Source: Gonapodya sp. JEL0774 | Taxonomy: Eukaryota | Length of the DNA: 36,791 nucleotides | Assembly (NCBI GenBank): GCA_027604505.1 | Contig: JADIIX010000180.1 | Span: 1 to 36,791, forward strand | Direction of reading: 5' to 3' | Shown here: positions 10,401 to 35,149 of the stretch, one piece after another | Position numbering within the stretch: position 1 is the stretch's first letter | Layout: each line of letters begins with the position of its first letter | Program-made: the position numbers and the translations under genes | The notes under the pieces: model-generated | Databases searched by the model: none | What the model was told of the DNA's origin: nothing | Seen by the model: only the letters and a program-made list of their open reading frames with translations

Positions 10401-11414
10401 TGGGATTCCTCGTAATGTGTTCGGTCACGGAAGTCTTCGCTTAGCAGTTCCATCTTATTTTCTTCCAGCAGTTCCCGATACCTTTTGATTGTAATTGCAT
10501 TAATATTCAGGTACGCTGCTGCTTGGGCGATTGCAAGCGGAAGGTTTGTGAGTTCCTTGAGGAGTTTCGCAGTGTTCAACTGATCCTCGAGCAATACTTT
10601 TCGTGTGAGGGACTTCTTAAACAACTCTGCCGCCTCCTGTCCACTCATCGCTTGCATATTGATGGTATCAACACCTGCGAGGTCCACTCCGACCTTCTGA
10701 GGGCGGGTTGTGAACAGTGTGAGTCCTTGTTCGCTCTGTGGAAGGTAGTAATCAATACCTCGTCCCTGCTTGGGGTGAAACACTACTTCTGCATCGTCGG
10801 CATTGTCTACGATCAAGAGCCACCGTCCGGCTGCGTCCTCGCTCAAATATCGCTTGACAACCTCCTTTATGTCTTCTGTTGCCCCTGTCGTAAGAGAGAT
10901 GCCAACTTTAATAGCCACCTCCTTGCACGCCTGCTCAAAGCTCTCCATGCTGAGTGCAGGAAACCAGAAGATTGAGTAGTCTTGATGTGTCCCCTTCACT
11001 CTGTACGCAAACTCGAGTGCAACTTGTGTCTTTCCCACTCCACCGAGTCCCACAAGAGCTGCCCTCTGACAATCCTCATCGTCAAAAAGTTTTCTGTTCA
11101 AGGTCGCGAGGACGTGATCCCGCCCCACAAACTGTTTGTTCCTTGAAAAGGGAATGTAGTAGTGGGGACGGGAGGAGCCGGGATTCGCATCAACTCTTGA
11201 TTGGGAAGCACTGATGACATTCATGATATTGCAGCGGTCACAGGTACGGAAAGGAAGCATGCGGACCCTTGAATGGTGGAGCTTACCTCGAGCCTTGGTT
11301 GTAAGAATTGCCGATCTGAGCGCGGCCACCTTCAATATGCTGGGAGTGTATTGTTATGTTGGTGACGTTACTCGTCGGTGCAAGCGAATTTGGAAAGGTT
11401 GTATCTCCCAGCAT
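7413..11414 (-). CDS. NLR/STAND protein: N-terminal HET-s-like amyloid motif - NB-ARC - TPR - RI-type LRR array; 13 exons: 11414-11287, 11210-9493, 9423-9328, 9212-9129, 9030-8947, 8832-8749, 8624-8541, 8424-8341, 8233-8150, 8055-7972, 7850-7767, 7665-7582, 7486-7413 (923 aa)
   Basis: Walker A GLGGVGKT, Walker B WLLIVDNAD, NLPLA, LHRLV, and kinesin-light-chain-like TPRs (LAAQHALARAYYSQGQ). All 12 introns are GT-AG and keep the frame; the exons sum to 2772 nt = 924 codons with no internal stop. Intron 9492-9424 has a GTGAGT donor, a perfect TACTAAC branch point (9460-9454) and a TAG acceptor. Confidence 0.85.
7582..9212 (-). repeat. Tandem exon-intron array: nine 84-nt phase-1 exons, each one 28-aa LRR (consensus xNSIGxAGARALAEALKTNSTLTxLxLx)
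   Basis: Each exon measures exactly 84 nt between an AG acceptor and a GTGAGT/GTGAGC/GTGAAT donor. Introns are 94-124 nt, mostly similar to each other, with CT- and CA-rich tracts on the minus strand. Confidence 0.93.
11301..11360 (-). other. Putative R0 amyloid signalling motif of the NLR (NITIHSQHIEGGRAQIGNSY)
   Basis: Alternating hydrophobic pattern and terminal [RK]-x-[QH]-[IV]-G-[NE] match the PFD repeats of the neighbouring het-S homolog. The motif is conserved in copy 1 (1884-1825, NIIIHSQHIEGDRVHIGNSN). Confidence 0.7.
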
Positions 11415-11708
11415 GGGACCGATGGGATTGGGACTGGGACGGGGGTTGGGAGGTGCCAGAGAGGGAAGACAAGGATTTGTTGGGGAATTGAAAAGGCGCA
11501 CGGTCCACACAAGAGCAGAATGGCCGAACCAACAAGGATCAATGGTTTGGAGTCCTTGGAAAGGGTCACGCGACAGGAAACCTTGCTTCGGCCAGGCCTT
11601 GGGTGGCACAGCCACTATGGCACCCCCCCATCTAGCAGAGCAAACTGGACAGAACAACTTCAATCACCAGAGGATTATTATCGCCCTCCGTTTTCACCTC
11701 CCACACTC
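11415..11708. promoter_or_regulatory. Probable bidirectional promoter between the divergent NLR and het-S-like genes (also 1951-2247)
   Basis: A ~295-bp spacer between the divergent start codons, conserved in both copies. No specific motif identified. Confidence 0.4.
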
Positions 11709-11982
11709 GTGGCAGAGGTTTTCGGGATCGTCTGTGGCGCTGTCAGTATCGCCGCTACCTTCAGCACCTGTCACAAATGCTTCAACTACGTCCAAGTCGG
11801 TCGCGGTTTCGACAAGGACATCCAAACGGAGACGCTCAACCTCGCATTGCTCAGTCGCGGTTTCGACAAGGACATCCAAACGGAGACGCTCAACCTCGCA
11901 TTGCTCAAGCTTCGCCTTTCGCGTTGGGGTGAGGCTGTCCACATTTACGACAAAGGCGGTTCAAATTTCAGTACGGGCTCCG
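11709..11982 (+). pseudogene. het-S: het-S homolog copy 2: HeLo N-terminal stub, start codon ATG->GTG, internal 54-bp tandem duplication, truncated
   Basis: (V)AEVFGIVCGAVSIAATFSTCHKCFNYVQVGRGFDKDIQTETLNLALL-SRGFDKDIQTETLNLALL-KLRLSRWGEAVHIYDK. Homology to copy 1 ends near 11982. Confidence 0.88.
11800..11907 (+). repeat. Perfect 54-bp tandem duplication (11800-11853, 11854-11907)
   Basis: GTCGCGGTTTCGACAAGGACATCCAAACGGAGACGCTCAACCTCGCATTGCTCA twice. Confidence 0.95.
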
Positions 11983-12355
11983 CAAAGCTGTTGGAGAGAC
12001 TGAACTTTTGATGCTATGTTTCGGCTCACGAAAGGGGTCAGCTGAGAGGAAAGACGTGCACGTAGTGAACGATTCACATATGGAAAGCGGAAGAGCCCAC
12101 GTCAACACTGCGTACATAAGAGGAAAGAAGATAAAGCAGAATGTGGAGCTGTTGGACATTAAACAACCACCGAGATTGGCTCACAAGAGCCCAAAGTGCA
12201 CGCACGAATGATACTGAGATCTCTGCGAGATACAGACTGGCCACCAAGGTTCGTAAACTACAATTACTATCCGAGATCAAGCACCCGATCGGTACGAAAA
12301 CACCATCCCGCCCCTCCTGGACTTCTCCTCCATCGGGTGAATTTTGTGTGCGAAG

Positions 12356-15300
12356 GCGTCGGGACCTCATTGGAGCGGAGGGAGTTGTGCGGAGACACTA
12401 TGCGATCGGGGTCGGTAGGATGTGGGAAGTAAGAGTAAACGGGCGAGTGGGATGAACGAATGGGGGACTTGGGACGCGCACTACTCCTTGTAAGATCCTC
12501 ACTTTATCCTTCTTGCTTGACATCTTCTCCTTCCTCCATTTTGTCGTCGAAGGGAGTGAGAAAGTTGCTGTGCATTGTCACAGAGGTGAACAGACAATGC
12601 AGACGTCGGTTTTTGGTAGGGGGTAGGGGCCGCAGGGGAAGCGGGGAGCAGGTGCAGACGGACTTTACTTCTTGTTCCACGTATACCATGCTACGTCTGC
12701 TCTCTCCCATTGCACTGCATTTTCCATCTCATGTTTCCTTCCCACCTCCCCACTTCTCCACTCAGACCATTGCCGTGCGTCCCGGAATCACTGATTACCT
12801 CCCAGAAACCCCTGATAAGCCGTATCATTATTCTGTGTAACTAGCCCAAGTATCCTACCAGATGTATCTGCCCTGGAGTCTGCCGGGAGGAGGATAGATG
12901 GGATGCAAAGTGCGGAATTGAAAACGGTGCGGGGTGGTGGGTATTTCACATATAAAGGCGTTGGATCTTCAAGATCACTTGGCAGTCGGCTGTTCTGAAC
13001 GTATTTCTCCACCGCTTCTTGCCCTTCAACATTCCACCCTCAATATTACCTGCTGAAGCCTACAACACACCCCTGTCAGTGAATAAACTGGGACTGGGGT
13101 CCCTGGTACTTACTTATCCTTCTCGGCATCCAGTCCCGGATGACTAGTGCAGCCTCCACCATTCCTACGACTGACCTGCTCACATTGTTGCCAATAAATT
13201 CGGCACCTGCGGCTGCATGACGCCAGTCCTCAATGATCCAACCACCTTACCGCTGGACTTCGGGTACCCCCACCTGCACACTAAATTCATGATACATTAC
13301 TGATTGATTATGCTGTGGGAAGGAGGGCGACGTTGGTGCCCATGAACAGAAGAGATAAGTTTCAATGACTGCCGAAATTGAAAGAATGAAGAATCGCGGA
13401 TATTGGATGAATCAAGAACGGCTTTAAATAAGCGAGGATGAAGAGAGTGTGAACAGAGTGTGCGAAAGACGGAAAGGGAGGTCCTGAACTTCTTCATTAC
13501 ACAAGAGCGAAATCCCTAAACGGCAATCATGTATTGTTTGCCTTTCATCTCCTGATTTATTCCCTGATTTCACTGAAGACAGCAAAGAAGAAGGCCACCC
13601 CTTGTGACCATGATCCAGTGACAGTCACTCCACTTGGCCACACTGATGGCAGTCAGTCCAGATGAACTCGACCAGCAAGAAAAACATATAAATGTACGAA
13701 CCAGAATAGATAGGAATAGATATCCAGATACATTCACCACCCTCGCGTTCCAATGGTGATCCTCTGATTGAGCAACCAGCATGCCTTACGCATCCACCAT
13801 CGGAGGCCACCAGCGTACACTAATAAAATTAATGTATCACCAGGGCATTGACCGACTATATGAAGCAGAGTCCTGCTAGCCTCATCAAGTGGATACTTGT
13901 CAGCTGCTGGCCATCGTTGGGTGTCAGCTGAGGGCACATCACCCTATCCCGGATGACGTGCTCTCAAACGACATTGCCCACTCTTCAAGCAACCGAAAGC
14001 TATCGAAACTCATCCCTCTTGTGAATGAGTGTTCGAACACCGGAAAGCTCAACTCCGCCCCATACCAAAGGATAGGGTGATATGCTCTCAAAGGACAAAA
14101 CCCCATCACAAAAGATGGTGTGATATGTTCTGAAGTGACAATGCCCACTCTTCAAGCAAGGCAACGCATGCTGTTGGGACTCATCAGTCCCGCTGGCTGA
14201 GCGCCTGTGCCCCCCCACGCCGACGCAGCCGTAATAACGGAAGTGGCCTGACTATCAACCGGACTCGGGTCTCTCTTGATGGCGAAACTTGTTGGCGAGA
14301 CTTGTCCCCGACCAGTCACCACAGCTCAGTGAGAATCCAGATGGTGATGTAGCGGTACGGACGAGGTGTGGTGTTGCCCGTTGGAGAGGGGTCGTGGGAG
14401 CGAGGGAGGAAGGGCGAGAAGAGAGAACTGGTGGGGGTCGGCTCGCGCGGACGTGATGTGGGATGTGCTTCGGTGGGGGAACATATCACTGGACGATGAA
14501 TGACACGACGACGTGCCCAAACGGCTGCGGGGAACTCACCAGCCGCCCCATCCTCCACCTCCTCCAGCTTGACGTCATCCCGTCCAGAAGATCAAGCCCT
14601 CCACCCTCCTTGTTCGATTCAGACTCGGCCACGAACCCCAAGAGCGAAGAGTCCAGCGAAGGGAATGGAAGAACGGTGAGCGCACCTGATACGGGGAACG
14701 GTGTTGGTCGGTGGAGCGGATGTTCGACATAGTCCCTGTCAGGATAAGTAAGTGTAGAATCTAAAAACATATCGGAGCAAAGAAAGCAACGCGGGAAAAT
14801 GAGTACTTCCAAAATCAGGTGTCAGCACAACAAGAACAGTCGCACGTACCATCGTCCTACGACTCCCTCCTTGTCCCTGACCACACCATGACGGAGTACC
14901 CACATGCCCATTCCCCGTTCCGCTGGCTTTGCTCTCATCCACCCCATCCTGCTCCATCATGTTCACACTCCCGTTACTCCCTGCTCCCCTGTTCGTGCTC
15001 TGCTTCCTCCCCGTCAACTTCGCAAACGTCCACTGAAGGAAGTTCCGTTTCGGGGGAGTACAATGCCCGGGATTGGAGGTGGAGGCGGCTGTGGGTGGCA
15101 CAGTTGTCGCCGATTGTGATGCTGCTCCAGCTCCCGACACCCCGGACAATTCCAACTCAGTCCGTCCAGTGTCCACACCGGCATCACCCTCCACACTTCT
15201 CTCCCCATCGCTCAACCTCGGACTCGGACGCGTCTTAGCCTCCGCAGTCTCCCCCGCTCACTCCATCTCACCCACTGGCCTTCTGCCGCTTGACCCCGCT

Positions 15301-17443
15301 CTCGTTCCACCCAGCCCCGAACCCCATCACCATCGTCAACGACATGGAACTGAAAGTGGACACTCCGAGCCCCAGCGTCCCGTACTCGCACGGACCATGA
15401 TGTTCCACTTGGTATGGTTCTGCAGGGACGTGGTCCGTCTCGGCATCGTGGCCGTGTCTTGGGGACCATCGCTGTTGCTCTGGGGGTGGTCGGCGCACTG
15501 GATGTGGACGTGCGCGATGGAGACGGCTACGGTTGTTTCAAATGCCCCGAAGCGCGGTCGGCGGTACGGGATCGGGGAGGGCAGTCTGACACCCCGCAGC
15601 CCGTGACCACTTGTGGGAGTAGGCGCTGACGCCACGGAGGCGTGCGACTCCTTGAACCGGCAGGGTTCGAGCTTGTTGAGGAGGGACTCGAGGATGGTGG
15701 TGCGAGCGGCGGTCGGGGTTTGTGCCGGACTGGGCGGCGTGGGTGTCTCCAGGCGTCAGTGTCAGTGTGAGATCGTCCACCCTGGCCAACTCCGCTTTAT
15801 CGTCGTCATCGTCCGTCGTGGTGGACTCCGACTTCGTGTCACTGCTCGCCACGTTGGCCATCTGCACCAACACCACCTGTACCAAACTGCTGAGCTGGTG
15901 CTGTGGTGCCGCTCCCCCACCTCCAACACCCGACACCGTCGACGCAGACACAATCGACACAGGCTTTCTGATCACGTTCCCGCCGCCGCCACTGTCGCAA
16001 TGGTGACCATTGGGGCCGCTAGGGGGAACCTCGCTCCTGTGATCGTGTCTGTGTACGACGCACCCGACGGCGACGAGCCTGGCACACGCGATCGTGTCTG
16101 TGTACGACACACCCGACTACGACGAGCTTGTCGACATGGTCGAGAACGATGGACGACGACGAGCTTGTGCACACGGCCGAGGACGCTGAGGCCGTGGTGG
16201 CGAGCGAGGTGAGCGAGTGGGACGAGAGGAGGGAGGCGGAGGGGAAGCGGGTCCAGGTGTTGGAAGCGGGTCCTGGTGGTGGAAGCGGGTCGAGGTGGTG
16301 GCTTGGGTCAGGGACGCCGGGTCTGCATCATTTGAGGATGAGGAATCGGTTGGGTAAGTCGTACACATCCACCACCAACCTGACGCAGCCCACCAACTTA
16401 CGCGTGGTCGTCCAACTCCCTGCCTCATCCCCCCAATTTCGTGCCCATCCTTCCCCCTCCCCCCTCCGCAGGGGATGCGGCGGGTCAGGTGGTGACGGTG
16501 ATGAGTATGAACGGGACGTCGAAGGAGGAGGTGGTGGCGGTTAGGAAGGAGACGACGGATGTGGTGGGCCGAGGTTGGGGGAGGTGGGAGGTGGTCGGTG
16601 TACTTGGCGGCACGAAGTACGGAAGCGCCGAAGCGCCGCCGACATGTTGGACGCCAGGAACCCGGGTCATTCCGATCCACAGGATGAGATGAGCTGGTCC
16701 CTGTCCCTATCCACCACAACCGCGGCGCCTGCCGGGGTGGACAACGACTTTCCTTGTTTTAGCAACCTCAGTTCCATCATGGCCATGCTCTAAAGGTTCG
16801 GACAACGATGGGAGGAGTACACGAGTGCTTTGGGTGGGGACAGCAGTACGCGGTGTTTGGGGTGTGGAGTGCGAGGTGGCTCGAGGACAGTGGTGTGGAT
16901 TCCGAGTGAGTGCACCAGGACAGGCAGGCGAGCGGGCAGCTGACATGTTGTATATTGAGCCATGACTGGCACCTGACATGTTGGATATTGAGCGATGAGC
17001 GGAGTCGGCCAAAAGTGGTGGTGGCTTTGGTAGCGGTGAGGGACGGAGGATTGGACGAGTGGGAACAGCTGCCCTTTCCGGACGAGTCGTGCCAGCGGTG
17101 GCGGGTGTGGGAGTGGGATGCAATGGGTGCGCCGGTTGGGTCGGTTTTGGGTCGGGGTTGATGATGCAACCCAATGAGGCGGGATCGGAAGTATGGTTGG
17201 AACAAGGCCACAGAGTGCAGAGTGCAGGAAGTCCAAACTCACGGAGCGATTCACGAGTGCGAGTTGCATGTACCAGAAGATGCCCGAGTCAAATACGAAC
17301 AGGCGTCTGCAGAGGAATAAGGGAGCGTTCGCACATGAAGCACCTCGGCATGTCCACATGCCAGCAAATGCTTACCAACAATCATAAGCCCCACGGAGTG
17401 AAGCGGCAACCGCCTCTACAGTCAGTCATTGGCGCACGCTTCA
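12356..17443. repeat. ~5-kb segmental duplication, copy A
   Basis: Starts GCGTCGGGACCTCATTGGAGCGGAGGG and ends CTACAGTCAGTCATT-GCGCACGCTTCA, as in 28631-33808. The first ~2 kb are nearly identical and the distal part is more diverged. Confidence 0.92.
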
Positions 17444-19503: not shown

Positions 19504-22408
19504 ATGTCGGACGGGCGTGCCGGAGGTGATCCCTGAACACAGTGTTTCTCCGGATCACACTTGTCAACTTACCATCCACACCCCTCTACAACTCCAGATG
19601 GCTCCAAGGCAAGACGCCTGCGTTCCGACGAGTATACCGTTGGGTGGATATGCGCTCTGCCGACGGAGCTCGCGGCTGCCCGGGCAATGTTTGATGAGGA
19701 ATACCAACCACTCGACCGGGACATGAGGGACCCGAACATCTACTCTTTCGGACGGATGGGGGTTCACAATGTTGTCGTCGCTTGTCTTCCGGCCGGAAAT
19801 CGCGGGACAAACTCTGCCGCAGCGGTTGCGAACAACCTCGGCCGGACTTTCGATTCCCTCCAGTTCGGCCTCATGGTGGGCATCGGAGGCGGCGTTCCCA
19901 GCCCAGAAGCAGACATTCGTCTGGGAGACGTAGTTGTCAGTCAGCCCTTTGAAACCTACGGCGGCGTGGTGCAATACGACTTCGGGGAACACACTTGGGA
20001 GGGGTTCCGGCGAACGGGATATCTCAACAGTCCGCCGCGTTTGCTTCTCAATGCCGTTAGCCAACTTCAAGCCAATCATCTTGCTGGAGATATCCGCCTC
20101 GCGGAACACCTTGAGAAGCTTAGACGGCTTCCAGTCTTCCATCGCGAGAGTGCCGGTCCAGACATCTTATTCCATCCCACATACAATCACAAACGAGGGC
20201 TTTGGTGCGAATCGTGTAGAGTCGATATGCAGCTCCCTCGTCCCGCTCGATCTCATGTAGAGCCCGTGGTTCACTACGGTTTGATTGCATCCGGAAACCA
20301 GGACATGAAGGATGGGGTGCAGCGGGACAGGGTCAGCAAAGAGCTCGGAGGAGTCCTGTGTTTTGAAATGGAAGCGGCAGGACTTATGAATCATTTCCCA
20401 TGCCTCATCATCCGTGGTATCTCCGACTATGCGGACTCACACAAAAACACCAGGTGGCAAGGGTATTCAGCAGGCACAGCTGCAGCATGTGCCAAGGAAC
20501 TCCTGTTGATGATACCAAGGACTGATCCGGGAACACGAGGTACGCGCCTCTATTTTGCTGTCGTGCCTCGCACTGTATCATCCTTATCTGTTGTAACTAA
20601 ACTGATCACATCCTCACGGTCATTGATTCAACAGCCTACATCCCTTTTCCACGGAATCCCCGTTTTGTGGGCCGCACATCACAGCTCCAACAGCTGGCAC
20701 AGAAGCTGCTGCACAACGAGGAATGCCGGCAGATGGCGCTCGTCGGTCTCGGCGGAGTCGGGAAGACTCAAGTCGCTCTGGAGTTTGCTTACCAAGTGAA
20801 GCAAGAGCATGCCGAGAGAGGGCGCTCTGTGTTTTGGTTGCCCGCAGTCAGCATGGAAAGTTTCGAACAAGCATGCAGGGAAATTGCAAGAACACTGGGC
20901 ATACCTTCGGAAAAGGATGATGACATCAAGGTAGTGGTCAAGCAGCATCTGAGTACGAAGAAAGCCGGTGTCTGGCTCATCATCCTCGACAACGCAGACG
21001 ACATCGGGCTTCTGACTGGTTCCAAGGGATCTTGGGGTATTTTACACTACCTTCCGCAGAGCGAGGATGGGCTCTCTGTGTATACAACCCGCACTCGAGA
21101 TGTTCCCTTGTCACTTGGAGTGGCCAATGTTATTGATGTGGACGCCATGGACAAACAGGAAGCAAAAGAACTACTTCAAATGTCCCTCATGCGCAAGGAG
21201 CTGCTCAACGACGATGCAAGCGTGGACAAATTCCTGGACGAACTTACATATCTTCCATTGGCACTCTCTCAGGCAGCAGCATATCTCAACAAAATCGAGA
21301 AAATCTCTATTGCAGATTATCTCGGCATGCTGCAAAGCACACAGGTGGCCGACGTGCTGAGCAGGGAATTCGTCAACATCCAGCGTTACTCAGGATCGAG
21401 CAATGCTGTGGCAACAACGTGGCTGGTTTCATTCAACCAGATCCGCACAAACGATCTTCTAGCAGGGGATCTTCTGGCATTTATGTCGTGTATCGAGTCT
21501 AAGGCGATCCCTCGAGCTATCTTGCCTGCGTTGGAGTCAAGATTCAAAATGGAAGATGCTATTGGCACCCTTACTGACTACGCCTTTGTGTCGCCTCGGA
21601 AGGACCAGGACATGTACGACCTCCACCGGTTGGTGCATCTTGCGGCTGGAGACTGGCTCCGCATACAGGGCCTCACGGCAGAAAAGACAAGAGAAGCAAT
21701 CCAGCATATCGCGACAATTTTTCACACAGACAATTGGGACCAGAGGAATGTGTGGAGGGCGTACATCCCGCACGCCGTGAAAGTGCTGGGGAGCAGCGAA
21801 GGCAAGGAATTGGCGGAACGATACGAGCTTTGCCTGTGGATCGGGCGATGCTTGCAGACGGATGGCAGAGTGCCAGAAGCCGTGATGTGGCTCCAGAAAT
21901 GCGACATCGGAAGACGGGACGAGTTGAAACTGGCCAAGTACCACCCGGACCGTCTCACCTCGCAACTCAACCTCGCTTACGCATAGCAGGCAAACGGGCA
22001 GGTGGGCAAGGCCGTCACGCTACTGGAGCACGTCGTCGCCGTCCGTGAGCGAGTTTTGGCCGAGGACCACCCGGACCGTCCCGCCTCCCAGAACAACCTC
22101 GCTTCCGCGTACCAGGCCAATGGGCAGGTGGGCAAGGCCGTCACGCTGCTGGAGCACGTCGTCGAGTCCATGAGCAGGTTTTGGCTGAGGACCACCCGTC
22201 CCGTCTCACCTCGCAGGCCAGCCTCGCATACGTCAAACAGGCCATGGCGGGGGCGGCTCTCTCGGCAGAAGCGGGTGCGGTCAATGGTGGTGAGGATGCA
22301 CGGCATGGGAGTGTGAGGTCCACAGTGGGTGGTAGTGGAAGCCAAGTGGCGTCGGCGCCCACTTGGTGGCGGACCATCACCACATCGGAAGAAGAGCAAG
22401 AGGAGTGA
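19504..22408 (+). pseudogene. PNP_UDP (purine/uridine phosphorylase-like) - NB-ARC - TPR NLR; exons 19504-19525, 19598-20539, 20635-22408; nonsense codon at 21984-21986 and 1-nt deletion near 22165 in the TPR tail
   Basis: PNP_UDP motifs YTVGWICALPTE, LMVGIGGGVP, GDVVVS, CFEMEAAGL, IRGISDYADSHKN. Intron 20540-20634 restores AYIPFPRNPRFVGR. GLGGVGKT, WLIILDNAD, YLPLA, LHRLV follow. The first exon is less certain (GTGATC donor). It may still express a C-terminally truncated protein. Confidence 0.88.
21942..22235 (+). repeat. 126-bp (42-aa) TPR tandem repeats with high internal identity
   Basis: CACCCG (HP) anchors at 21942, 22068 and 22193 (spacing 126, then 125). QANGQVGKAVTLLEHVV occurs twice. 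Confidence 0.85.
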
Positions 22409-22892
22409 CGGTATGTTGCAGAGAATGTGGAACAAATTAATTTGGAAATAGGATGGTGTTTATGTTATGACATTTTCTTTTATGGAGGTATAACGTGTCT
22501 TCTTGCTGATGTTGTTATAATATGTGTTACATACTATTGTAGATTATGTAACGCACACGAACATACCTATTAGTCTTTCAATCTTTTCTCTCTCTCTTTC
22601 TCTCCCTAGTGTATGAATTCTAATGCAGGATGCTGGGTTTTGACCACACATGTATATAAGATAGAGAGCCTGTTCTTGGACACAGGATACCAGGATACGA
22701 TTAAATCGTTCAACCCACTGTCCCAGCGGACATCGGTACAGATGACGACAAAAATAGAGATAGGTGGGAAGGGAAGTAGAAGAAGAAAAGAAGAGGTGGT
22801 GGCCGCCGTCAGGCTGGACAAGCAGACCTTATCCTGACGTCCTCCCTATCCTAGTCCCTGTGGTATGCCACACCTCATCGCACAACGAGGTC

Positions 22893-23998
22893 CTATCCTG
22901 TCATCCTGCTTATCCTAGTTCTTGCGGTATGGCACACCACACCGGACGAAAACGTCGTATCCTGCCGTCCTCGCTCACCTTGGCCTGTGCACTCACTCGC
23001 CCCCAGCACAGGTCCTGTAAAATCTGACGAGTTCCAGTCCACCAAAAACGCAACGGCGGACGATACCTCGGAGACCGTTGTGATGGCGTGGAGTGCTCGG
23101 CACCGCGGAAACGTCGGCTTTTCGGCTCTCAGTTGCTGATATTCTCGCTCGTCCCGCTCTCCACGGATCTCCACTGTCACTACAACCCGAGATCGAATGT
23201 CGCTCGCAGGATAGCTACGATACGATGTACCAGTCTGATCCACAGCACTCCAGATTTTTCCATACCGCGCAATCAGCCCTGTACGGCGACCAGCACATTG
23301 AAGATGAGACTAGCTGTCCTTGGCTCTCTTTCCAATCGTAACATTCTGCATCTCTGCCCGAAGCGCGGTGAAGAAAATATGCAAAGTGTTCTCGTAGCCA
23401 TGTGGAAAAAGCGGTCCAAAAGAGCTCTCTGGTTGAGTGACCGCGATTTAAACGTCTTGTCTGCTGCCCGAAGACGCTCCTCTACACCGAAGAAGACGCA
23501 AGCGTCACGAGCGAGACAATCCAGCCTGTAAGATGCGATCGCAGTCATGCATCCCGTGTTTCCATCCTCGTCCAAAGTAGCCATTGCTCCCCTCTTGCCC
23601 ATTTTCATTGCCGGTGACGCGTCTGACGCGTCGTGGTCCCCACACGCGAGGGTGAGAGCTCGTTCCAATCCATCGCGGTCCTTCTTGCCGAGACCAGGTG
23701 GCCGTCCCCCGCTCTTGATGTTTTGAAAGAACGTTTGGTGCAAACCGTGACCGCGCTGTTTCAGGTCGCGACGAATCGACGAATGATTTCGAGCTACAGA
23801 GCAGGCAGCAGCCCGTTTGTCCTGAGGGAAACGAGGTGGTGAAATCAGTATTGGTGCTGGAGCAACGCTGAAACGTGTATAAATGCTCACTTGCGTGTCA
23901 ATTGAGATACTCTGGCCCTTTGATTCATCCTTGGACTTCCGGAGGTAGGCAACGAAGACGGGAAGACCGGGTAGGGGAGCTGTGGATGATGATGCCAT
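22893..23998 (-). pseudogene. Serine recombinase (resolvase-type catalytic domain) with a spliceosomal intron (23890-23822); frameshift near 23450, stop at 23312-23310
   Basis: VAYLRKS..Q.ISIDTQ (YxRxS nucleophile motif), KSGG...RDGLERAL, YRLDCLARD (LDRLxR with R->C). After the frameshift comes LHIFFTALRAEMQNVTIGKRAKDS*SHLQCAGRRTGLIARYG, resembling helix E and the G..G...YG linker. The intron is GTGAGC...ACTGAT...CCTCAG, phase 0. Confidence 0.75.
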
Positions 23999-24697
23999 CC
24001 GAGTTGAAAGCTGAGTACGCGACAGGAAGGATTGAAACCAAAAATACGAAGTCCATCACTGATGCAGGTGTGCCGGCGAAGTGGGACAACTTATTCGTGT
24101 GCAATTGACAGGTTCCCGATTGCCATGGTAAAAATAACAGACGCTACCTGCGGGAGAGGAAACAGCTCTTTCCCTAGGGGCTAGGGTGACAGCAGAAACC
24201 TGGCGCGGGACGCGATGAGATTGACAGGGTCAAGCATTGTTGGTCTGAGCGCGAGGGAAACGGTAGCGGGGCGCGCGGTTTCAGGTGCGATAGAAAAGAC
24301 GATGGACGGTCGTAGGAGTAAAGCGGAGACGAGAAGTTCGCGAGAAGATGGTGCGTTTTGTCAATATGATGTTGTTCGACGTTGATCCGCTGGGTGTACG
24401 TACATCCGTGGTTATTGTGTTCTGCTACTCGCCGAGTTGATCGTACATGTGTTTCATGTCGCATCCAGGGCTTGTAATACTTGTACGTCTACGCCGCCGC
24501 CCTCACCGCGAGTGATACGTTATGAAGTTCTCGTGTATCTTCCTCAGTGTTCCCTGAGGGAATTGGACTACAACAGTCCGTAAACTGTAACGACTTTCAA
24601 ATGTTATCACATGACACGCACACATCTGAAATAATGCACTGGCAATTTGAGAACCTGAATAAACTTATCACGAGCAAATCCTCCCTTTTTGGGACCC

Positions 24698-26012
24698 ATG
24701 TTGAAGGGGCTCATGGGCGCACTGACTTCTTTCGAGCATCCCAAACCCGTGAACCCGTTCCCATCGATATCCGAGATACCCCCTCCATCCATGGAGGATA
24801 CCATCATTGTGGACTCGGACTCTGAGATATCGCTGGAGGTTCGTTCGCCCATCTGCGCGTTCGGTTCAATCCCTGAATTCTGTTTATGTATCCACTCTGT
24901 CCCCTCTCACAATCACATGTGTTATTGCGAGAATAGTGGTACGAAAAGCAATGTTCCCCGATAATAGACTATACTGAACTCAGCTCCAGGCCAAGTTACA
25001 TTCAGCTCGAACTACCGACATGCAAGGAACGTTTGCGGGAGTTCGTCGCCCGTCGTGATAATGGAAAGAGGCGTCACCGTCGTACTTCCAGGAGCGCACC
25101 TCGATGTGTCAGTATCAACACCAGATCGTTTTTTCTGGGGTGCTCATCCGTTAGGCTTGGGTGTCCCTTCTATAGGTCAACGCCTTTCTGCTCTACCGTC
25201 GTGCCCTTGATGTGGATACCAGGTACTATGGAATCGACGAGATTCCCTTTGCTCAGAAGTCTCGAATGCTAGCGACATGGTGGAAAAACGAGACCAAAGA
25301 GGTGAAGCAGGTTTTTAGAAACCTCTATAAAGAAGCGAAGAAGTTATCGTGCGTATTTTGTTTTTTGACTGCATTGGTGTGTCATTTCCCTGCCCTTCAA
25401 CCTCTCACTTAACAGTGCCAGAATTACGGAAGGCGTGTCCTCAATTGCTAAAGACTCCCTCGAGATGCAAATTAAGGAAGAGGATGAAGATGGAAACCGC
25501 TTTTCAGAGTGAGCCTCAGAGATTCCGTACCACTCTATCTCTCTGACGTGCATAATGTCTCAGATATCATGATGTCGGAATTGACGTATCACCTCAGGAT
25601 GCTTTTGATTCAACTGAAAAGGAAGAAAAGGAGAAGAAAGAAGAGTGCAAGTTAGTATTGAGACGCCTTAACAGCACAGTGGGATCTGAGTTCGACGTGG
25701 TTTTCAGCTCCAGATGCGATGACTTCCACTTCGACAATTCATCTTATGATATCTTGCAACCTGAAATAAAATACGAGGACTACATGTGAGTATCTAATTC
25801 TTGCTATCTAGGTGAATTCTCACACACTTCGCAGTCCCGAAAGTGTCACCCAAGATGACTCAGTAGCTCCGGTTTCCAATGATGACCCAAACTTTAAACC
25901 AATATCTAACGCCTGCATAGGCATGTTACATGTGGAAGAAGTTCTTCCTCCCACCCTCCAAATGGAATTGGAAGGCAATCCATTTGAGATCTCATCAAAC
26001 CTGATTTCGTGA
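24698..26012 (+). CDS. MATA/SOX-TCF-type HMG-box transcription factor; exons 24698-24838, 24937-25107, 25176-25348, 25416-25508, 25564-25785, 25835-26012 (5' end uncertain)
   Basis: The spliced HMG box reads APRCVNAFLLYRRALD...IPFAQKSRMLATWWKNETKEVKQVFRNLYKEAKK. All five introns are GT-AG and frame-preserving. A basic stretch (KRRHRR) precedes the box and the C-terminus is acidic. Confidence 0.75.
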
Positions 26013-26108
26013 TCCATTCGCGACGTGTTTGAACCCGATGTTAAACATATTGTTTACGTTGAGTGGATTTGTTTTGCTGACTTTATGATTTACAAAGAGA
26101 ACAATTTA

Positions 26109-26188
26109 TTTCCTGTTTGTATGATGCGAGAAGTCCGTTCAAAATTTGTTTCCTGTGTACATGATGCGAGATGTCTGTTTGAACATTG
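26109..26188 (+). repeat. Imperfect 40-bp tandem repeat (2 copies)
   Basis: TTTCCTGTTTGTATGATGCGAGAAGTCCGTTCAAAATTTG / TTTCCTGTGTACATGATGCGAGATGTCTGTTTGAACATTG. Confidence 0.7.
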
Positions 26189-26491
26189 AGCCATACATTA
26201 CAGTTAACATGTTTTCCTATCTGAGAACGATGCGCTACACTCTGAATTTCTGTTCATTCTTTCCAATAATACTGCGTTCCATAATGGGAAACTCGTGTAA
26301 CAAGTTTCCCCTGGTACTCACTGTAAATCCAAGAGAAAGAAGCCCTGCGCATAGAAGCGGCAAGAGAAGAATACAGCAGAATATGAAAAAGAAGCAGCGT
26401 AGCTTGTTCATCAGGATTATCATGCTCATTACATTACATAACATTGTATGGGGAGAACGGAGTGTGGCTTTGGTGATGCCGCAGTTCACAA

Positions 26492-27161
26492 CAGGCCAAA
26501 CCCATCCCAGCCCAACGCGGCACACGGGAAACCTATCTCCTCCACAACCAGCAGTGCAATAACCCGTAGAAGTAAGAATTATGTAGCTATTAGTGTGTAG
26601 AATAGAACTCTTAAGCGGTATCCCGCCCCCGGCACTCCTGCAGGAGATGCAGTTTGAAATAGTACGGGAACCCACACTCGTTGCGCCGAGGGGTCGGGTA
26701 AATATATTTAGTTTAGCCGCTTCAATTATTTGCTGCAGAATATGAATACTCCGCAGTTTTGGGGGTATTTGGGTCTGCAGAAAACGATGGAGGGGTTGGA
26801 GAGTTTATCCGGCCTCGACAACAGGCTCCAGGTGGTGTCATCACCACCAATCACATGAGAATGAGCGTTGGTGTTATAATGCCAGTGCGCGTTGGTCGAC
26901 AAGAGGGTTATGCAGTCATGCACCGACCAACCAAACCCTCCTCCACCCCTCACACACACACATACACTCAACCAAGCTTTACACTCTGCTGCGGCTACGC
27001 CACAGCACGGGAACCCGGGTTGCGCTAGGGGTCAAAAGTAAAAGAATTGCGGCAAGTGATAGATAATTGCTGTGGCTTTCCAAAAATCTATATCTTGATT
27101 TTTCCCTGTGCGTATTGAGAGTTTTTCTCTAAATGGGTGTGATCCGGATGGGTTTGGCCTG
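26492..27161. mobile_element. Non-autonomous TIR element (MITE-like, possibly Tc1/mariner-pogo derived)
   Basis: Perfect inverted repeat ACAGGCCAAACCCATCC (26491-26507) / GGATGGGTTTGGCCTGT (27146-27162). The ends are CAG...CTG, with TA on the right and AA on the left. An internal motif ACGGGAACCC...GTTGCGC recurs. No transposase. Confidence 0.55.
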
Positions 27162-28630
27162 TAGCGTGACGGGCCCGGGAACAAATCTCTCTCTCTCTCC
27201 CCCACCCCCTTTCTCGCGCTTGAACAACATCGCGTCCCTTGCGCTTTCGAGAATACTGTGATTATTGTTTTCCAGCCTTTTGCTTTGCCTCAGAGCGTCA
27301 CTGTACTAGTTGCCAGCAAAATCGTAGCAATAGAGATAAACTCGCAGTCACTGTGATCGCCATCTGACAGCCTTTGCGAGGATTGGTGCAGGCCTCTCGT
27401 CGTCCTCTGAATCGTCATTCATCCTCTCTCTCGTCGTCCTTGTAACGATCTGTTTACTCGCTTTCACTGTCGACTGTGTCGACTCTGGAAGAGTCAGAGG
27501 AAGGACATACGGAAGACGAAGATGACGATGACACCAACCAAGACAGCAAAGGAAGTAGCCGGGAGTCTCTTTCTGGTGCCGCTAGCGGTTGGCGATCCAG
27601 ACCTTGCTAGGGGCCTTTGCTGCCACAGATGTCACTGCTTGCTTCTGTGCTCCACCGGCAGCCACTTGCCACGGTAGGCGTTAACTCTCTCTCTCGCTTC
27701 TTTCCCCTTCAACCACCTCCGATAAGCCTGTTCAGCACAGCCGGGAACCCACCTTCGATCTGCGTCAGAGCGGGCGACGTGAGTGATTTTGCAGGCGCGT
27801 TTGATGCCGTGGATTGCGCAGGCGAGCTCGGCGCGGTGATGGTTGCTGTGGAGATGGAGGTTGGAGAACTTGCGAGGCGGGGTCGGGGGAGGCCCACAGA
27901 TGGCGTGATCATGGATCCAACTGGTTGAGAAATCTCACGCAGCCACAAGATCTTTCCCTCACGTCATTCCACCAAACTCACTTGTCTCCCACCCAACACT
28001 CCCATCCCACTCGCCCTCGATCCCCGTCCACCACCCCGCATCCGCCCACCTCGCGTTCCACCTCCACTGGTCCCCGATCCTTCCAGCCTGGATCACCTGA
28101 TTCGCTGGTAGGGACATCCGTCTGGCCACAGTCGCCGACCAGGGCGGGCTTGCGCCGGAGATGAGGACTTTTGAGCTCCTGAGTGCGTTTGCAGGATGTA
28201 ACGCTGGAGACTAGGGGAGATGTTGAGAATGCTCCTGGGATAGTAGCTTGGGGTGATTGGGGTGGTTTGTACGGCGATGAATGTGGTGACAGAGGTGGGA
28301 GAAGCCCCGTTTGGCCTGAGCGAGGAGAAGTGAGCGCTCGAGGGAACCAAACCCTATCTGTGCACACACCGTAATCTAAATTCCCCCCGAATTCTCGGAA
28401 ATGGCGGGAACTCCTGTAACCCTCCTACCCTCCCCCTCCCCCTCCCCCTCCGTCTCCGTCTCCGTCTCCCTCTCCACCAGCGCCTTCCCCTCAGCAACCA
28501 CCTCCACCCACTTTGCTCACCACTCCCAACACCTCCCCTTCCCATATCCCCAGCCCCTCCTCCATCCGTTCCTCTCCCACTCAGCGAACACCCGATCCGC
28601 CGTGACGCCCAACTCGGCGAGTGAAGGAAT

Positions 28631-31600
28631 GCGTCGGGACCTCATTGGAGCGGAGGGAGTTGTGCGGAGACACTTTGCGATCGGGGTCGGTAGGATGTGG
28701 GAAGTAAGAGTAAGCGGGCGAGTGGGATGAACGAATGGGGGACCTGGGACGCGCACTACTCTTTGTCAGATCCTCACTTTATCCTTCTTGCTTGACATCT
28801 TCTCCTTCCTCCATTTTGTCGTCGAAGGGAGTGAGAAAGTTGCTGTGCATTGTTACAGAGGTGAACAGACAATGCAGACGTCGGTTTTTGGTAGGGGGTG
28901 GGGGAAGCGGGGAGCAGGTGCAGACGGACTTTACTTCTTGTTCCACGTATACCATGCTACGTCTGCTCTCTCCCATTGCACTGCATTTTCCATCTCATGT
29001 TTCCTTCCCACCTCCCCACTTCTCCACTCAGACCATTGCCGTGCGTCCCGGAATCATTGATTACCCCCCAGAAACCCCTGATAAGCCGTATCATTATTCT
29101 GCGTAACTAGCCCAAGTATCCTACCAGATGTATACTGCCCTGGAGTCTGCCGAGAGGAGGATAGATGGGATGCAAAGTGCGGAATTGAAAAACGGTGCGG
29201 GGTGGTGGGTATTTCACATATAAAGGTGTTGGATCTTCAAGATCACTTGGCAGTCGGCTGTTCTGAACGTATTTCTCCACCGCTTCTTGCCCCTCAACAT
29301 TCCACCCTCAATCTTACCTGCTGAAGCCTACAACACACCCCTGTCAGTGAATAAACTGGGACTGTGGTCCCTGGTACTTACTTATCCTTCTCGGCATCCA
29401 GTCCCGGATGACTAGTGCAGCCTCCACCATTCCTACGACTGACCTGCTCACATTGTTGCCAATGAATTTGGCACCTGCGGCTGCATGACGCCAGTCCTCA
29501 ATGATCCGACTACCTTACCGCTGGACTTCGGGTACCCCCACCTGCACACTAAATTCATTATAAAATCCTGATTGATTATGCTGTCGGAAGGAGAGAGACG
29601 GTGCCCATGAACAGAAGAGATAAGTTTCCATGGCTGCCGAAATTGAAAGAATGAAGAATCGCGGATATCAGATGAATCAAGAACGGCTTTAAATAAGGGA
29701 GGATGAAGAGAGTGTGAAGAGAGTGTGTGAAAGACGGAAAGGGAGGTCCTGAACTCCTTCATGACACAAGAGCGAAATCCCTAAACGGCAATCATGTATT
29801 GTTTGCCTTTCATCTCCTGATTTATTCCCTGATTCCACTGAAGAGAGCAAAGAAGAAGGCCACCCATTGTGACCATAATCCAGTGACAGTCAATCCACTT
29901 GGCCACACTGATGGCAGTCAGTCCAGATGAACTGGACCAGCAAGAAAAGCAATAAATATACGAACCAGAATAGATAGGAATAGATATCCAGATAGATTCA
30001 GCACACTCGTGTAGTCGTGTTCCAATGGCAATCCTCTGATTGAGCAACCAGCATGCCTTACGCATCCACCATCGGAGGCCACCAGCGTACACTAATAAAA
30101 TTAATGTATCACCAGGGCATTGACCGAATATATGAAGCAGAGTCCTGCTAGCCTCCTCAAGTGGATACTTGTCAGCTGCTGGCCATTGTTGGGTGTCAGC
30201 TGAGCGCACATCACCCGATCCTGGATGACGTGCTCCCAAAAGACATTGCCCATTCTTCAAGCCACCGAAAGTTATTGAAACTCATCCCTCTTGTGAATGA
30301 GTGTTCGAACACCGGAAAGCTCAACTCCACCCTATCCCAAAGGATAGAGTGATTGCTCTCAAAGGACAAAACCCCATCCTAAAGGACGGAGTGATATGCT
30401 CTCAGATGACAATACCCCATCCCAAAAGATGGAGTCATATGCTCTCAAATAATAATGCCTACTCTTCAAGTAAGGCAAAGCATGCTGTTGTGACTCATCA
30501 CTCCCGCTGGCTGAGCGCCTGTGCCTCCCCACGCCGACGCAGCCGTAACAGCGGAAGAAGCCGGGCTATCAACCGGACTCGGGTCTCTCTTGATGGCGAG
30601 ACTTGCCCGCGAAGATCAGCACAGCTCAGTGAGAGACCAGATGGTGATGTACCGGCGGCACGGATGAGGTGTGGTGTTGCCCGTTGGGGAGGGGTCGTGG
30701 GAGCGAGGGAGGGAGGGCGAGAAGAGAGAACGGGTGGGGTTCGGCTCGCGCGGACGTGATGTGGGATGTGCTTCGGTGGGGGAACATATCACTGGACGAT
30801 GAATGACACGACTACGGGCCCAAACGGCCGCGGGGAACTCACCAGCCGCCCCACCTTCTAAATCCTCCACATTGACATCATCCCGTCCAGAAGACCAAGC
30901 CCTCCACCCTCCTTGTTCGATTCAGACTCGGCCACAAACCCCAAAACCGAAGAGTCCAGCGAAGGGAATGGAAGTACGATGATACGGGGAACGGTGTTGG
31001 TCTGTGGAGCGGATATTCGACATCGTCCGTCTCAGGATACGTAAGAGGAGAATCTAAAAACCTATATCGGAGCAAAGAAAGTAACGTGGGAAATGAGTAC
31101 TTCCAATATCAGGTGTCAGCTCATCAGGAACAGTCGCACGTACCATCGTCCTACGAACCCCTCCTTGTCCCGGACCACACCATAGCGGAGAACCCACATA
31201 CCCATTCCCCGTTCCGTTGGCTTTGCTCCCATCCACCCCGTCCTCCTCCATCATGTTCACAATCCCGTTACTCCCGGCTCCCCTCTTCTTGCTCTGCTTC
31301 CTCCCCATCAGCTTCGCAAACGTCCACTAAAGAAAGTTATGTTTCGGGAGGGTAGAATGGGCGGGGTGGACGGTGGAGGCGGCTGTGGGTGGGCACAGGG
31401 GTCGCTGATCGTGCTGCTGCTCCAGCTCCAGACCCCCTAGACCCTTTCATCCGAGTCCGTCCCGTTTCCACACCGACATAACCCTCCGCACTCCTTTCCC
31501 TAACGCTAACGCTCGGCCTCGGCGCATCTTAGCCTCCCCAGTCTTCCCCACTCCCTCCGTCTCACCACCGGTCTCCTCCCCTATGATCTCGCTCCCATCC

Positions 31601-33808
31601 CGCCCAGCCCCGAACCCCATCAGCATCGCCACCGATATGCGGTTGAAAGTAGACACAATCAGCCTCACAGTCCCCGTCTCGCACGAACGTGGTTCTGCGG
31701 GTACAGGTTCTCTCTCTGCATAATCGTCGTCTCGGGGTCCGTCCGTCCCCGTTACCCCACGACTGGTTGGCGCAGTGGACGGGGACGTGTAGTATTGGAG
31801 ACGGTGACGGGTGTTTGAAATCCCCCGAAGCGCGGGACGGGGATCGGGAGGGCAGCTTGGCTCCCACCTGGCCGGGATGAGGTGTGAGTGACAGAGCGTC
31901 AGGAGCACCGGCACCCAATGTCGTGCAGGATCCCGAGAGACCAACGACCCGTTGGGTGGGTTTTCCGGCCACTGCACCGGTTCCACCTCGTCCACCTCTT
32001 CGAACCCGAAAGACAACGCTGCCCTGTACATCATCCACTCTCTTCCCTCCCCTCCACCTCCACCACCTGCGTACATCATCTCCCTCACCCCGCTCTCAAC
32101 GAGCATTGACGCCGCAGACACCGCCTGATCCACTGCAAGCGCCTGGAAAAAGGAGTCACCGGTGGTCCAGGTGTCGGAGTAGGAGTCGACGCCACGGAGG
32201 CACGCATTTCGTAGGACCCATGCCCATTCAAGTTTGTTGAGCAAGGATGCGGAGATGGTCGTGTTCAGGTGTTCAGGCGTCGGTGCCGGTGTGAGATCGT
32301 CCATTGGAGTGATCTCCGACTCCGTATTACTGACCACCACTGGGGTCATCAGCGCCAACACCACCTACTTCAAACTACTGAAATGCTGCTGCAGTGCCGG
32401 TCCTCCACTGTCGACGACGAGTCGACGACATGATCGACACCAGCCGCCCCACCACGCTCCCGCCATCGCCACCTCACAACGGTGACCACGTGGGCCGCCA
32501 CGGGGAACCCCACGCCCGTGATCGTCTCTGTGTACAACGTTCCTGACGACGATCCGGTGGACACGGCCGAGAGCTCTGAGGCCGTGGTAGGTAGCGAGGT
32601 GAGCGAGTGGGACGAGCGGAGGGAGGCCGAGTGGAAGCGGGTCGAGGTGGTGGCTTGGGTTGGGGACGCCGGGTCTGTATCATTTGAGGATGAGGAATTG
32701 GTTGGTGAGTCGTACGTACCCACCAACAACCTGACGCAACTCTCCAACTTACGCGTGGTCGTGCAACTCCTTGTCTCATCCCCCCAATTTCGTGCCCCTA
32801 CTTCCCTCCTCGCCCCCTCGGCGAAGGATTCGAGGGGTTAGGGTGGTGGCGGTACTGCTTGTGGATGGTACGTTGAAGGAGGAGGTGGTGGTAGTTACGG
32901 GGGAGACGACGGTGGCGACGATGGATGTGGAAGGCAGAGAAGTTGGGGGAGGTGGTCTATGGACGCGGCTGCACAAGGTACGGAAGCGCTGAAGTGCCGC
33001 CGACATGTTGGACACCAGGAACCCGGACAATCCCGATCCACAGGACGAGTTCAGCGGGTCCCTGTCCCTGTCCACCACACCTCCGCGCATGCCGGGGTGG
33101 ACCAGGACGTTCCGTGCTTTGACAACCTCAGTTCCACCGTCGCCATGCTCTGTTGGTTCGGGCAACGATGGAGGGGACGCGAGTGCTTTGGCGGGGACAA
33201 CAGTACGCGCTGTTTGGGGTGTAGAGTGCGTAGTGGCTCGAGGACGGTGGTGTGGATGGCTAGTGAGTGCGCCAGGACCGGCAGGCGAGCGGGCAGGCGA
33301 CATTTTGGATATCGAGCGATGACTGGAGTCTGACATGTTGGATATTGAGTGACCAGCGGACTCGGCCGAAGTGGTGGTAGCTTTAGTGGCGGTGAGGGAC
33401 GGAGGATTGGACCGGAGGGACACGCTGCTCTTTCCGGACAAGTCGTGCCGGCGGTGCCGGGTGTGGGAGCGGGATTCCCGGAGGCGCTGGTTGGGTCGGT
33501 TTTGGGTTCGGATTTCTGATGCAACCTGTGGAGCGGGATCGGAATGATGGCTGGAAAAAGGCCGCAGAGTGGAGAGGGCAGGAAGTCCAGACTCACGGAG
33601 CGATTCACAAGTGCGAATTCCACGTACCAGAAGATGCCCGGGTTGAATACAAACAGGCATCTGTAGTGCTGCAACAAGGGAGCGTTAGCACAACAAGCAC
33701 CTTGGCATGTCTGCATGCAAGCAAGATGCAAATGCGTACCAGACAATCCACAGCTCCATGGAGTGAAGCAGCAACCACCGCTACAGTCAGTCATTTGCGC
33801 ACGCTTCA
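28631..33808. repeat. ~5-kb segmental duplication, copy B
   Basis: Colinear with 12356-17443 in the same orientation. Confidence 0.92.
31447..33720 (-). other. Possible lineage-specific low-complexity S/T/P-rich gene or pseudogene inside the duplicated block (paralog ~14740-17360)
   Basis: Long minus-strand ORFs (294 aa, 305 aa) and a GTGAGT donor near 33596 that is conserved near 17242. The two copies differ by frameshifting indels. No recognisable domain. Confidence 0.25.
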
Positions 33809-34498: not shown

Positions 34499-35149
34499 TC
34501 AATTGTTCGTCGAGCATTTGCTCTTAAGTGCCTTGAACGCGATTCTCCCAGCGTCACCGATCGAGTTCCCTAGAGTCAAAGTAGAGGAGAGAGTGGAGAG
34601 GAGAGAGGAACCGGTGGGTGAGTGTGTATGCGACTTTTGTCTCTGAGAGGGAGGTCACACGCTGATACTCACAACTGACATCGAGCGACATCAAGGAGGA
34701 GTTGGTCTTGAGGGCCTCAGCAAGCGCTCTGGCGCCAGCCTCACCGATACAGTTGCCTGGAGTTGAAGTAGAGGAGAGAGGAGACGGAGTGTGTGTTCAT
34801 GTGTGTGTGACTCAGCGACTCTGAGCAAGAGCGAGCTCGAGGTCACACTCTGATACTCACTATAAAGGTTGAGCGACGTCAAGGTAGAGTTGGTCTTGAG
34901 GACCTCAGCAAACGCTGTCGCGCCAGCCTCACCGATCGAATTGTCTGTAGTAGTAAAGGAGAGCAGAAGAGGGACGAGAGAGGAGAGAGGAGACCGTGGT
35001 TACGGGGTGTGTGTGAGAGACTCTGCGCCTCTGGAGCGAGAGTGAGCCAGAAATCAAACTCTGATACTCACTATAAAGGTTGAGCGACGTCAAGGTGGAG
35101 TTGGTCTTGAGGGCCTCAGCAAGCGCTCTGGCGGCATCGTCACTGATCG
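34499..35149 (-). pseudogene. Orphan 3' fragment of a paralogous LRR array: partial exon 35149-35072, 84-nt exons 34944-34861 and 34756-34673, terminal exon 34569-34499
   Basis: Same LRR consensus (NSIGEAGATAFAEVLKTNSTLTSLNLY; NCIGEAGARALAEALKTNSSLMSLDVS) and the same splice sites and 3' flank as 7413-9212. The most upstream exon lacks its acceptor, and no NB-ARC lies upstream within the window. Confidence 0.85.

Follow-up and report, generated by a model that had tools for sequence, protein, structure and literature searches.

Introduction

Serine recombinases cut four DNA strands through serine–phosphate links and exchange them by Grindley-type subunit rotation. In clostridia, TndX and TnpX, the latter being the transposon recombinase of Tn4451, excise their elements as circles and reintegrate them without terminal inverted repeats (TIRs) or long target duplications. 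Fungi also have recombinase-driven DNA elements with intron-bearing genes, Crypton and Starship, which use tyrosine recombinases.

According to the available sections of a 2026 review (PMC13565253), IS607EU stands alone among known eukaryotic DNA transposons in using a serine recombinase, and IS607-like recombinases with Fanzor2 are the only type covered in the available text of Bao and Jurka (2013; PMC3627910) and of Yoon et al. (PMC10711439). The yeast Lachancea kluyveri has six IS607-type genes, which have an N-terminal DNA-binding domain and are duplicated, mobility not being shown in the available part of that report (PMC2715888).

Here we describe a decayed gene from Gonapodya and the family to which it belongs, which by its sequence appears to be integrase-like, native to zoosporic fungi and, apparently, undescribed. 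A literature search that covered few subscription papers or Repbase Reports found no description of this recombinase family, nor is it described in the available portions of PMC6431247 and bioRxiv 2021.12.02.471044. Like IS607EU and the Fanzor2-associated recombinases, it is a serine recombinase present in several copies in eukaryotic genomes, with no TIR found. It differs from IS607EU in that the catalytic domain comes first, without a MerR-type N-terminal HTH, and is followed by a PxG linker and a C-terminal domain of 130–180 residues; it also forms a separate clade, and in the copy studied here the gene contains a spliceosomal intron and no TnpB was found beside it. With the large serine recombinases (LSRs: the Bxb1, phiC31 and TP901-1 integrases and TnpX of Tn4451) it shares the domain order, a long helix E and a PYG-like linker, and these enzymes supply its best fold and sequence matches. 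However, they are approximately 450–650 residues long, whereas the full-length members of the family have 332–375 residues and no zinc ribbon or coiled coil, with a C-terminal domain that is not recognised as PF07508; the copy studied here, moreover, lies in a eukaryotic host and has an intron. The small resolvases and invertases (Tn3, Hin) differ in being approximately 190 residues long with a C-terminal three-helix HTH. The serine recombinases of NCLDV are of similar size and align over their full length with a predicted structure from the family, but at only 14–18% identity. Crypton and Starship would resemble the family in that they are DNA elements of fungi, are driven by a recombinase and have genes with introns, and differ in their unrelated enzyme, with tyrosine rather than serine chemistry.

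A decayed recombinase gene in Gonapodya

The window, by which we mean the whole 36.8-kb stretch of DNA analysed, comes from Gonapodya sp. JEL0774, an early-branching aquatic fungus. Judged from its sequence, the region 23998–23124 on the minus strand is a serine recombinase pseudogene, because its relatives carry the Resolvase domain, motifs and fold, and the copy itself aligns with one of them, P0006 (39% identity over 155 columns; E 6e-34). The NCBI gene model is HDU93_002791 (P0001 below), 218 residues long and spliced with a 69-nt intron. The features of the gene and its two neighbours are as follows.

19537–22405, plus strand: convergent neighbour, a PNP_UDP-NB-ARC-TPR NLR-like gene, with a TAG at 21984–21986
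22818–22972, no strand assigned: tandem repeat with a 64-nt unit (2.2 copies, 75%), which overlaps the decayed 3' end
22893–23123, minus strand: open tail of about 77 codons without significant family match
23124–23449, minus strand: segment past the second frameshift (near 23449), with helix E, the linker and the first part of the C-terminal domain
23270–23259, minus strand: ARYG (in the GRRTGLIARYG linker), corresponding to the PxG motif of the family
23312–23310, minus strand: premature TAG in helix E
23450–23793, minus strand: exon 2, catalytic domain, with SG, RDGL, a subfamily-specific insert of about 25 residues, and RLDCLAR
23527–23507, minus strand: RLDCLAR, with the catalytic Arg replaced by Cys (TGT, 23518–23516)
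23677–23666 and 23713–23708, minus strand: RDGL and SG, respectively, within exon 2
23784–23769, minus strand: perfect 8-nt tandem duplication in helix A, the first frameshift under the 97-nt intron model
23890–23794, minus strand: GT-AG intron, phase 0, 97 nt (likely the ancestral length), donor directly after SIDTQ
23890–23822, minus strand: alternative 69-nt intron with inner AG at 23823–23822 (GTGAGC / CTGAT / CCCTCAG)
23891–23998, minus strand: exon 1, 36 codons, with ATG at 23998 and YLRKS, ending at SIDTQ
23947–23933, minus strand: YLRKS, aligned to the invariant Y, R and S of the family (Arg codon 23941–23939; predicted nucleophile Ser 23935–23933)
25176–25350, plus strand: divergent neighbour, an exon flanked by AG and GT whose sequence is HMG-box-like (PF00505 with E 0.0069, which is below the cut-off)

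An earlier note on this DNA had described YLRKS, SG...R.GL and RLDCLAR motifs, a spliceosomal intron right after SIDTQ, a frameshift, a helix-E-like segment and the GRRTGLIARYG linker. All of these are present, with the GT donor at 23890 and the frameshift near 23449. It had also counted about 115 further codons past the linker; about 45 of these (to 23124) are homologous to the family, and the rest, the tail of about 77 codons, has no significant match. Its description of the copy as dead holds, given the change of Arg to Cys, the frameshift and the TAG stop. Decay of this copy would have involved the 8-nt duplication, the substitution of the catalytic Arg, the second frameshift, the stop and a 3' truncation.

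The segment 23124–23449 is matched in tblastn by P0006 (residues 138–241), P0012, P0014 and P0015, and scores 53.7 bits with the family HMM. Family homology stops at 23124, equivalent to residue 241 of the 375 residues of P0006, and the last 95–130 residues of the family are absent. P0003, which belongs to the same subfamily as the window copy, retains the family C-terminus, and we therefore regard the window copy as 3'-truncated. The tail has a single weak match to P0012, 14 residues long and in a different frame (22962–22920); one of 15 tests gave such a match, and none of 200 shuffles did.

Searches of P0001 itself against Pfam, PHROGs, NCBIfam and the PDB sequences gave no match, and its assignment as a recombinase thus rests on its relatives. 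The read-through of the window copy scores 21.7 bits on a home-made profile of the LSR catalytic domain, and the structure model of P0001 (pLDDT 38, from a 3-row alignment) is unusable. Resolvase clusters lie close to P0001 in the ESM Atlas (0.92, 173 features). We give this little weight, because the C-terminal ORF (22896–23309, minus) was placed at the same strength near the C-termini of SDR dehydrogenases (0.91, 177 features). We take the SDR placement of this ORF to be a likely chance result, since alignment to paralogs identifies its first 62 codons as recombinase. The tail does contain a motif, EVSSAVAFL...FTG, that resembles SDRs; it may resemble them by chance, or belong to foreign DNA that replaced the lost 3' end.

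Length of the intron

The 69-nt GT..AG intron proposed in the earlier note exists as a candidate, with a signature that arises in 17 of 2000 dinucleotide shuffles (0.85%), and is the one used by the NCBI model, but homologs favour a length of 97 nt. The models were compared using a profile of eight sequences of other origin, none of them from this assembly, with X at each break. The 97-nt model scored 82.5 bits, compared with 61.7 for the 69-nt model, 60.9 for the unspliced sequence and 1.0 for the best of 300 shuffles. The 97-nt model is colinear with P0006 and gap-free, whereas the 69-nt form requires a 12-residue gap. P0006 reads SIEVQFDHIRRELKVKG, and P0004 reads LEIIRGDLKHR at the corresponding site; the window gives SIDTQ followed by LEIIR when the acceptor TAG at 23794 is used. 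The additional 28 bases and the 8 bases of the duplication together make 12 codons, which keeps the 69-nt form in frame, and in the whole window there are only 8 starts of duplications of this 8-nt type. The ancestral intron was thus likely 97 nt long rather than 69, with the 8-nt duplication subsequently breaking the frame behind it.

In P0002 and P0003 the protein model is interrupted at the same donor, and in the protein models of P0004 and P0012 homology begins at the same acceptor, which suggests, at the level of protein models rather than DNA, that the intron is common to paralogs. It may not be family-wide, since five members lie on short contigs as uninterrupted ORFs or as fragments. 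The donor of the window copy resembles the donors of the LRR-array introns of the same window (GTGAGYAT). The intron would mean that the gene was transcribed and spliced in the nucleus.

A family of related proteins in zoosporic fungi

A profile of P0001 and P0002 was searched against 1.84 billion representatives at E ≤ 1e-3 and gave 14 matches, of which nine are from fungi or an aphelid (six from this assembly, and one each from Hyaloraphidium curvatum, Amoeboaphelidium occidentale and Chytridium lagenaria), and five lie on metagenome contigs of 1–5 kb. None of the 14 is named as bacterial or viral, in agreement with the view of the earlier note that the family is associated with eukaryotes. 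Word-index protein searches found three, three and five proteins; the last of these missed most of its own query rows and is weak.

Identification of the family as serine recombinases is supported by the Resolvase domain (PF00239), whose cut-off is passed by 10 of the 12 relatives scanned, and by the fold of P0006 described below. The cut-off of this domain, a search for which the earlier note had proposed for the repaired protein, is passed by none of P0001–P0003, with P0002 at 21.6 against a cut-off of 23.3. In the 12 aligned members the Y, R and S of the first motif, the SG and three Arg are invariant (YxRxS, SG..R, DRLxR); it is the first Arg of DRLxR that is Cys in the window copy. The PxG linker appears as SPYG, SPFG, APLG or APRG, and as ARYG in the window copy. 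N-terminal extensions of 13–82 residues are not conserved. Among the 12 members no HTH family was found in Pfam at E ≤ 1, and there is no Pfam match to PF07508, PF13408 or HTH_7; as a control, PF13408 was matched in all three bacterial proteins tried, in one of them below cut-off. A proposed Crypton GCR1_C domain at the N-terminus of P0012 has no Pfam match and was dropped.

The JEL0774 assembly contains seven family gene models on seven contigs (36.8, 205.9, 20.6, 39.9, 1.7, 10.0 and 9.0 kb). These copies are 30–82% identical, mostly fragments, and represent at least three lineages; P0006 (375 residues) is the only one with all motifs in one open model. In H. curvatum there are four accessions on four contigs, KAI9026947.1, KAI9000166.1, KAI9007001.1 and KAI9031229.1, with intact motifs; three are identical and the fourth differs at 2 of 332 residues. 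This dispersal over seven and four contigs fits a mobile element, as the earlier note had proposed, although the four H. curvatum copies could represent segmental or assembly redundancy. We note that P0002 (HDU93_003523) contains two catalytic domains of different subfamilies in tandem within one gene model, suggestive of adjacent or nested insertions; it has no match in phages or plasmids.

Predicted fold and the possibility of a viral origin

The AlphaFold model of P0006 has a pLDDT of 70.7 and is predicted to contain the resolvase catalytic fold. All 26 PDB matches listed by Foldseek at E ≤ 1e-3 are serine recombinases, the best being Bxb1 (E 2.7e-8), and the fold matches include Bxb1, phiC31, Sin, gamma-delta and TP901-1. 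In VIA comparisons the model matches TP901-1 with Z 14.2 (rmsd 3.9 over 128 residues), the next unrelated fold having Z 7.0; residues 4–318 align with residues 9–297 of 9dxd over 230 residues (rmsd 11.3), and 2mhc, which is cited with TnpX of Tn4451, was also among the structures compared. The C-terminal domain is modelled as strands followed by three helices, presumably the order expected of an LSR recombinase domain. Comparison of this domain with the LSR recombinase domain using hhalign gave a score of 15.9 against a shuffle maximum of 14.3 (P 0.057), which is not significant.

Among predicted viral structures (BFVD), the first four ranks for P0006 are held by proteins of giant viruses: Edafosvirus A0A3G4ZTN9, Pithovirus A0A481Z8W0 and A0A481Z649, and Bodo saltans virus A0A2H4UUQ0 (230–416 residues, E 3e-8 to 6e-8). 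The gene might therefore derive from Nucleocytoviricota or another integrating dsDNA virus, having entered fungi with endogenous viral DNA, gained an intron, scattered and eroded. Gonapodya prolifera is reported to carry NCLDV genes (PMC5294986, in the part available), zoosporic fungi host Mycodnaviridae (PMC13533422, likewise), and uninterrupted family members on short metagenome contigs would also be consistent with a virus. However, the viral matches have only 14–18% identity, and phage proteins follow at ranks 5–6 with similar E-values. Scans of IMG/VR, which required exact peptides and so had low power, found a true relative in none of seven cases, one locus proving to be a 30-residue chance match. 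No viral hallmark occurs among the 43 ORFs of the window that were scanned, and resolvases go unmentioned in the main text and part of the supplements of PMC13533422 and in the available part of PMC5294986. Scans of JGI metagenomes and GTDB gave no flanking DNA of relatives; one JGI scan missed the contig of its own query, P0017, and so had low power. We regard a viral origin as unlikely, and favour a mobile element of host-genome type.

Phylogenetic placement

The catalytic domain was placed using two quick trees, one of 58 rows (13 from the family, without P0003, P0004 and P0005) and one of 45 rows (12 from the family), from which 20 rows were additionally omitted: four long branches, near-duplicate LSR and small-resolvase rows, and domain 2 of P0002. 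In both trees the family is a single clade (SH-aLRT 98) that lies outside the small-resolvase clade. Eight IS607 transposases of Bacillota form a clade of their own (99), in a tree without eukaryotic IS607. The seven IS607 proteins compared all have 62–77 residues, including the HTH, ahead of the motif. The conclusion of the earlier note that the catalytic domain is N-terminal, and the protein not of IS607 type, is therefore upheld by the absence of an HTH in the 12 members and by the separate clades.

Profile comparisons point in a similar direction. The LSR profile outscores the IS607 profile in 11 of 12 members, the exception favouring IS607 by 50 to 48 bits, and is the top profile in 10 of 12, one of these tying with the small-resolvase profile only when the IS607 profile is higher. 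Among bacterial proteins, the family profile is best matched by three-domain LSRs (E 1e-7 to 1e-5), and among phage proteins P0015 is best matched by serine integrases (28–31%). The outgroups consisted of Bacillota, Streptomyces-type phage integrases and three other LSRs, and because this sampling is narrow we do not name a donor lineage.

IS607EU being the only described eukaryotic case in the available sections of PMC13565253, the family could in principle be a domain-permuted relative of the IS607EU/Fanzor2 elements. A tree joining the family to IS607 is not rejected (p-AU 0.18), and the one member scoring 50 against 48 bits would agree with such a relationship. Against it stand the missing N-terminal HTH, the long C-terminal domain past the PxG linker, the separate IS607 clade, and the Pfam scan of the flanks. 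The regions 22300–23153, 23990–24501 (minus) and 24300–27301 were scanned in six frames, with stops as X, and the rest of the window as 43 selected ORFs; the six-frame regions, which surround this truncated copy, contain no TnpB or Fanzor match and no other Pfam family. We consider this relationship very improbable, and the preferred reading is still an element of non-IS607 type.

Genomic surroundings

The copy does lie in an immune locus, as had been noted earlier: PNP_UDP-NB-ARC-TPR and HeLo/NB-ARC/TPR genes are present. The convergent NLR-like gene looks damaged too, from its sequence, with three 126-nt TPR repeats at 21915–22244 (plus), a TAG at 21984–21986 and a 1-nt shift in the third repeat. 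On the other side, the HMG-box-like exon (VNAFLLYRR...WW...EVK..F) lies in a multi-exon gene, and is likely part of a host gene. Further away, an NB-ARC-TPR gene (minus) stands back to back with a HeLo-domain fragment (plus) at 9455–12011; the junction region is duplicated at 1604–2444, and the HeLo-domain fragment contains an exact 54-nt tandem duplication at 11800–11907. Arrays of exons that we take from their motif to be LRR-like, in units of approximately 200 nt, occupy 7465–9033 and 34548–35149 (minus). Each unit consists of one such exon and a repeated intron that has a GTGAGTATCA donor and a long CT tract, that is, a tandem duplication of exon and intron together. The immune locus looks like a repeat-rich setting rather than a functional partner of the recombinase.

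A 5-kb block is duplicated at 12352–17443 and 28627–33808 (80–88% identical), with fragments at 4949–5394 and no Pfam match in the ORFs scanned, and the window also contains a 1-kb segmental duplication and NLR fragments. The gene model of P0003 splices a piece of the 5-kb block (14760–14531 / 31026–30834, minus) onto the recombinase, so that the two are adjacent at another locus too. The suggestion that the recombinase may have contributed to local rearrangements is not supported: the nearest duplication breakpoint is more than 4 kb away, the flanks of the copy contain no TIR or direct repeat of note, and flank similarity to breakpoints is mostly at chance. The downstream flank reaches a maximum of 26 against 22 breakpoints, equal to the random 95th percentile of 26; for the upstream flank, 3 of the 22 (25, 26 and 29) exceed the random 95th percentile of 23, and the one examined is a 13-nt inverted repeat. 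This repeat is perfect (24427–24439 and 28610–28622) and encloses 4.2 kb containing the HMG-box-like gene. The end of its right arm coincides with the start of the duplicated block, and a target duplication was not seen; the repeat may have arisen by chance, the expectation being estimated at about 0.07. A second perfect inverted repeat, of 17 nt (26491–26507 and 27146–27162, 638 nt apart), is possibly a MITE-like insertion.

The 5-kb and 1-kb duplications show that passive duplication can multiply genes here, which together with the lack of TIRs or direct repeats in the flanks counts against a mobile element. The recombinase could accordingly be an old horizontal acquisition without an element of its own, passively multiplied by segmental duplication or domesticated, for example for DNA inversion near NLR or HMG-box genes. 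The joined model of P0003 hints at shared larger blocks, and the duplicated IS607-type recombinases of L. kluyveri offer a precedent (PMC2715888, available part). However, the copies have different upstream neighbours in the gene models, fall into several divergent subfamilies and are mostly broken; the family is patchy across distant lineages; and the link between flanks and breakpoints is not established. Passive multiplication or domestication thus appears a distinctly unlikely explanation, and we return to the mobile element.

Discussion

Mobility of the family is likely, on sequence grounds. We consider that the family probably represents the recombinase (transposase or integrase) of an undescribed eukaryotic mobile element that is of host-genome type and not IS607. 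The mobile-element reading follows from the many decayed and dispersed copies, the near-identical intact copies elsewhere, and the patchy spread over distant lineages; that the element is undescribed follows from an enzyme layout different from that of the IS607 type. With slightly less assurance, though still on balance, we propose that eukaryotes have a second class of DNA transposons or integrative elements based on a serine recombinase, independent of the first, with a compact integrase-like enzyme lacking the zinc ribbon, present in Monoblepharidomycetes, chytrids and aphelids, recently active in H. curvatum, and adapted to the nucleus in its spliceosomal introns.

By analogy with known enzymes, an intact protein of 330–375 residues would bind the element ends through its C-terminal domain and form a tetramer, which would cut four strands through serine–phosphate links, rotate and rejoin them. 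The element would leave as a circle and integrate at a new site with neither TIRs nor long target duplications, as do those of TnpX and TndX. Without the zinc ribbon and coiled coil, direction and target choice would likely be controlled differently.

The copy in the window is a dead relic, valuable because it points to the family. The near-identical intact copies of H. curvatum make the family directly testable. Tools for genome insertion are a further reason for interest in compact serine recombinases, of approximately 330 residues, with an evolutionary history on chromatin. If our reading is correct, the eukaryotic mobilome would gain a new mobilisation chemistry through this integrase-like family.
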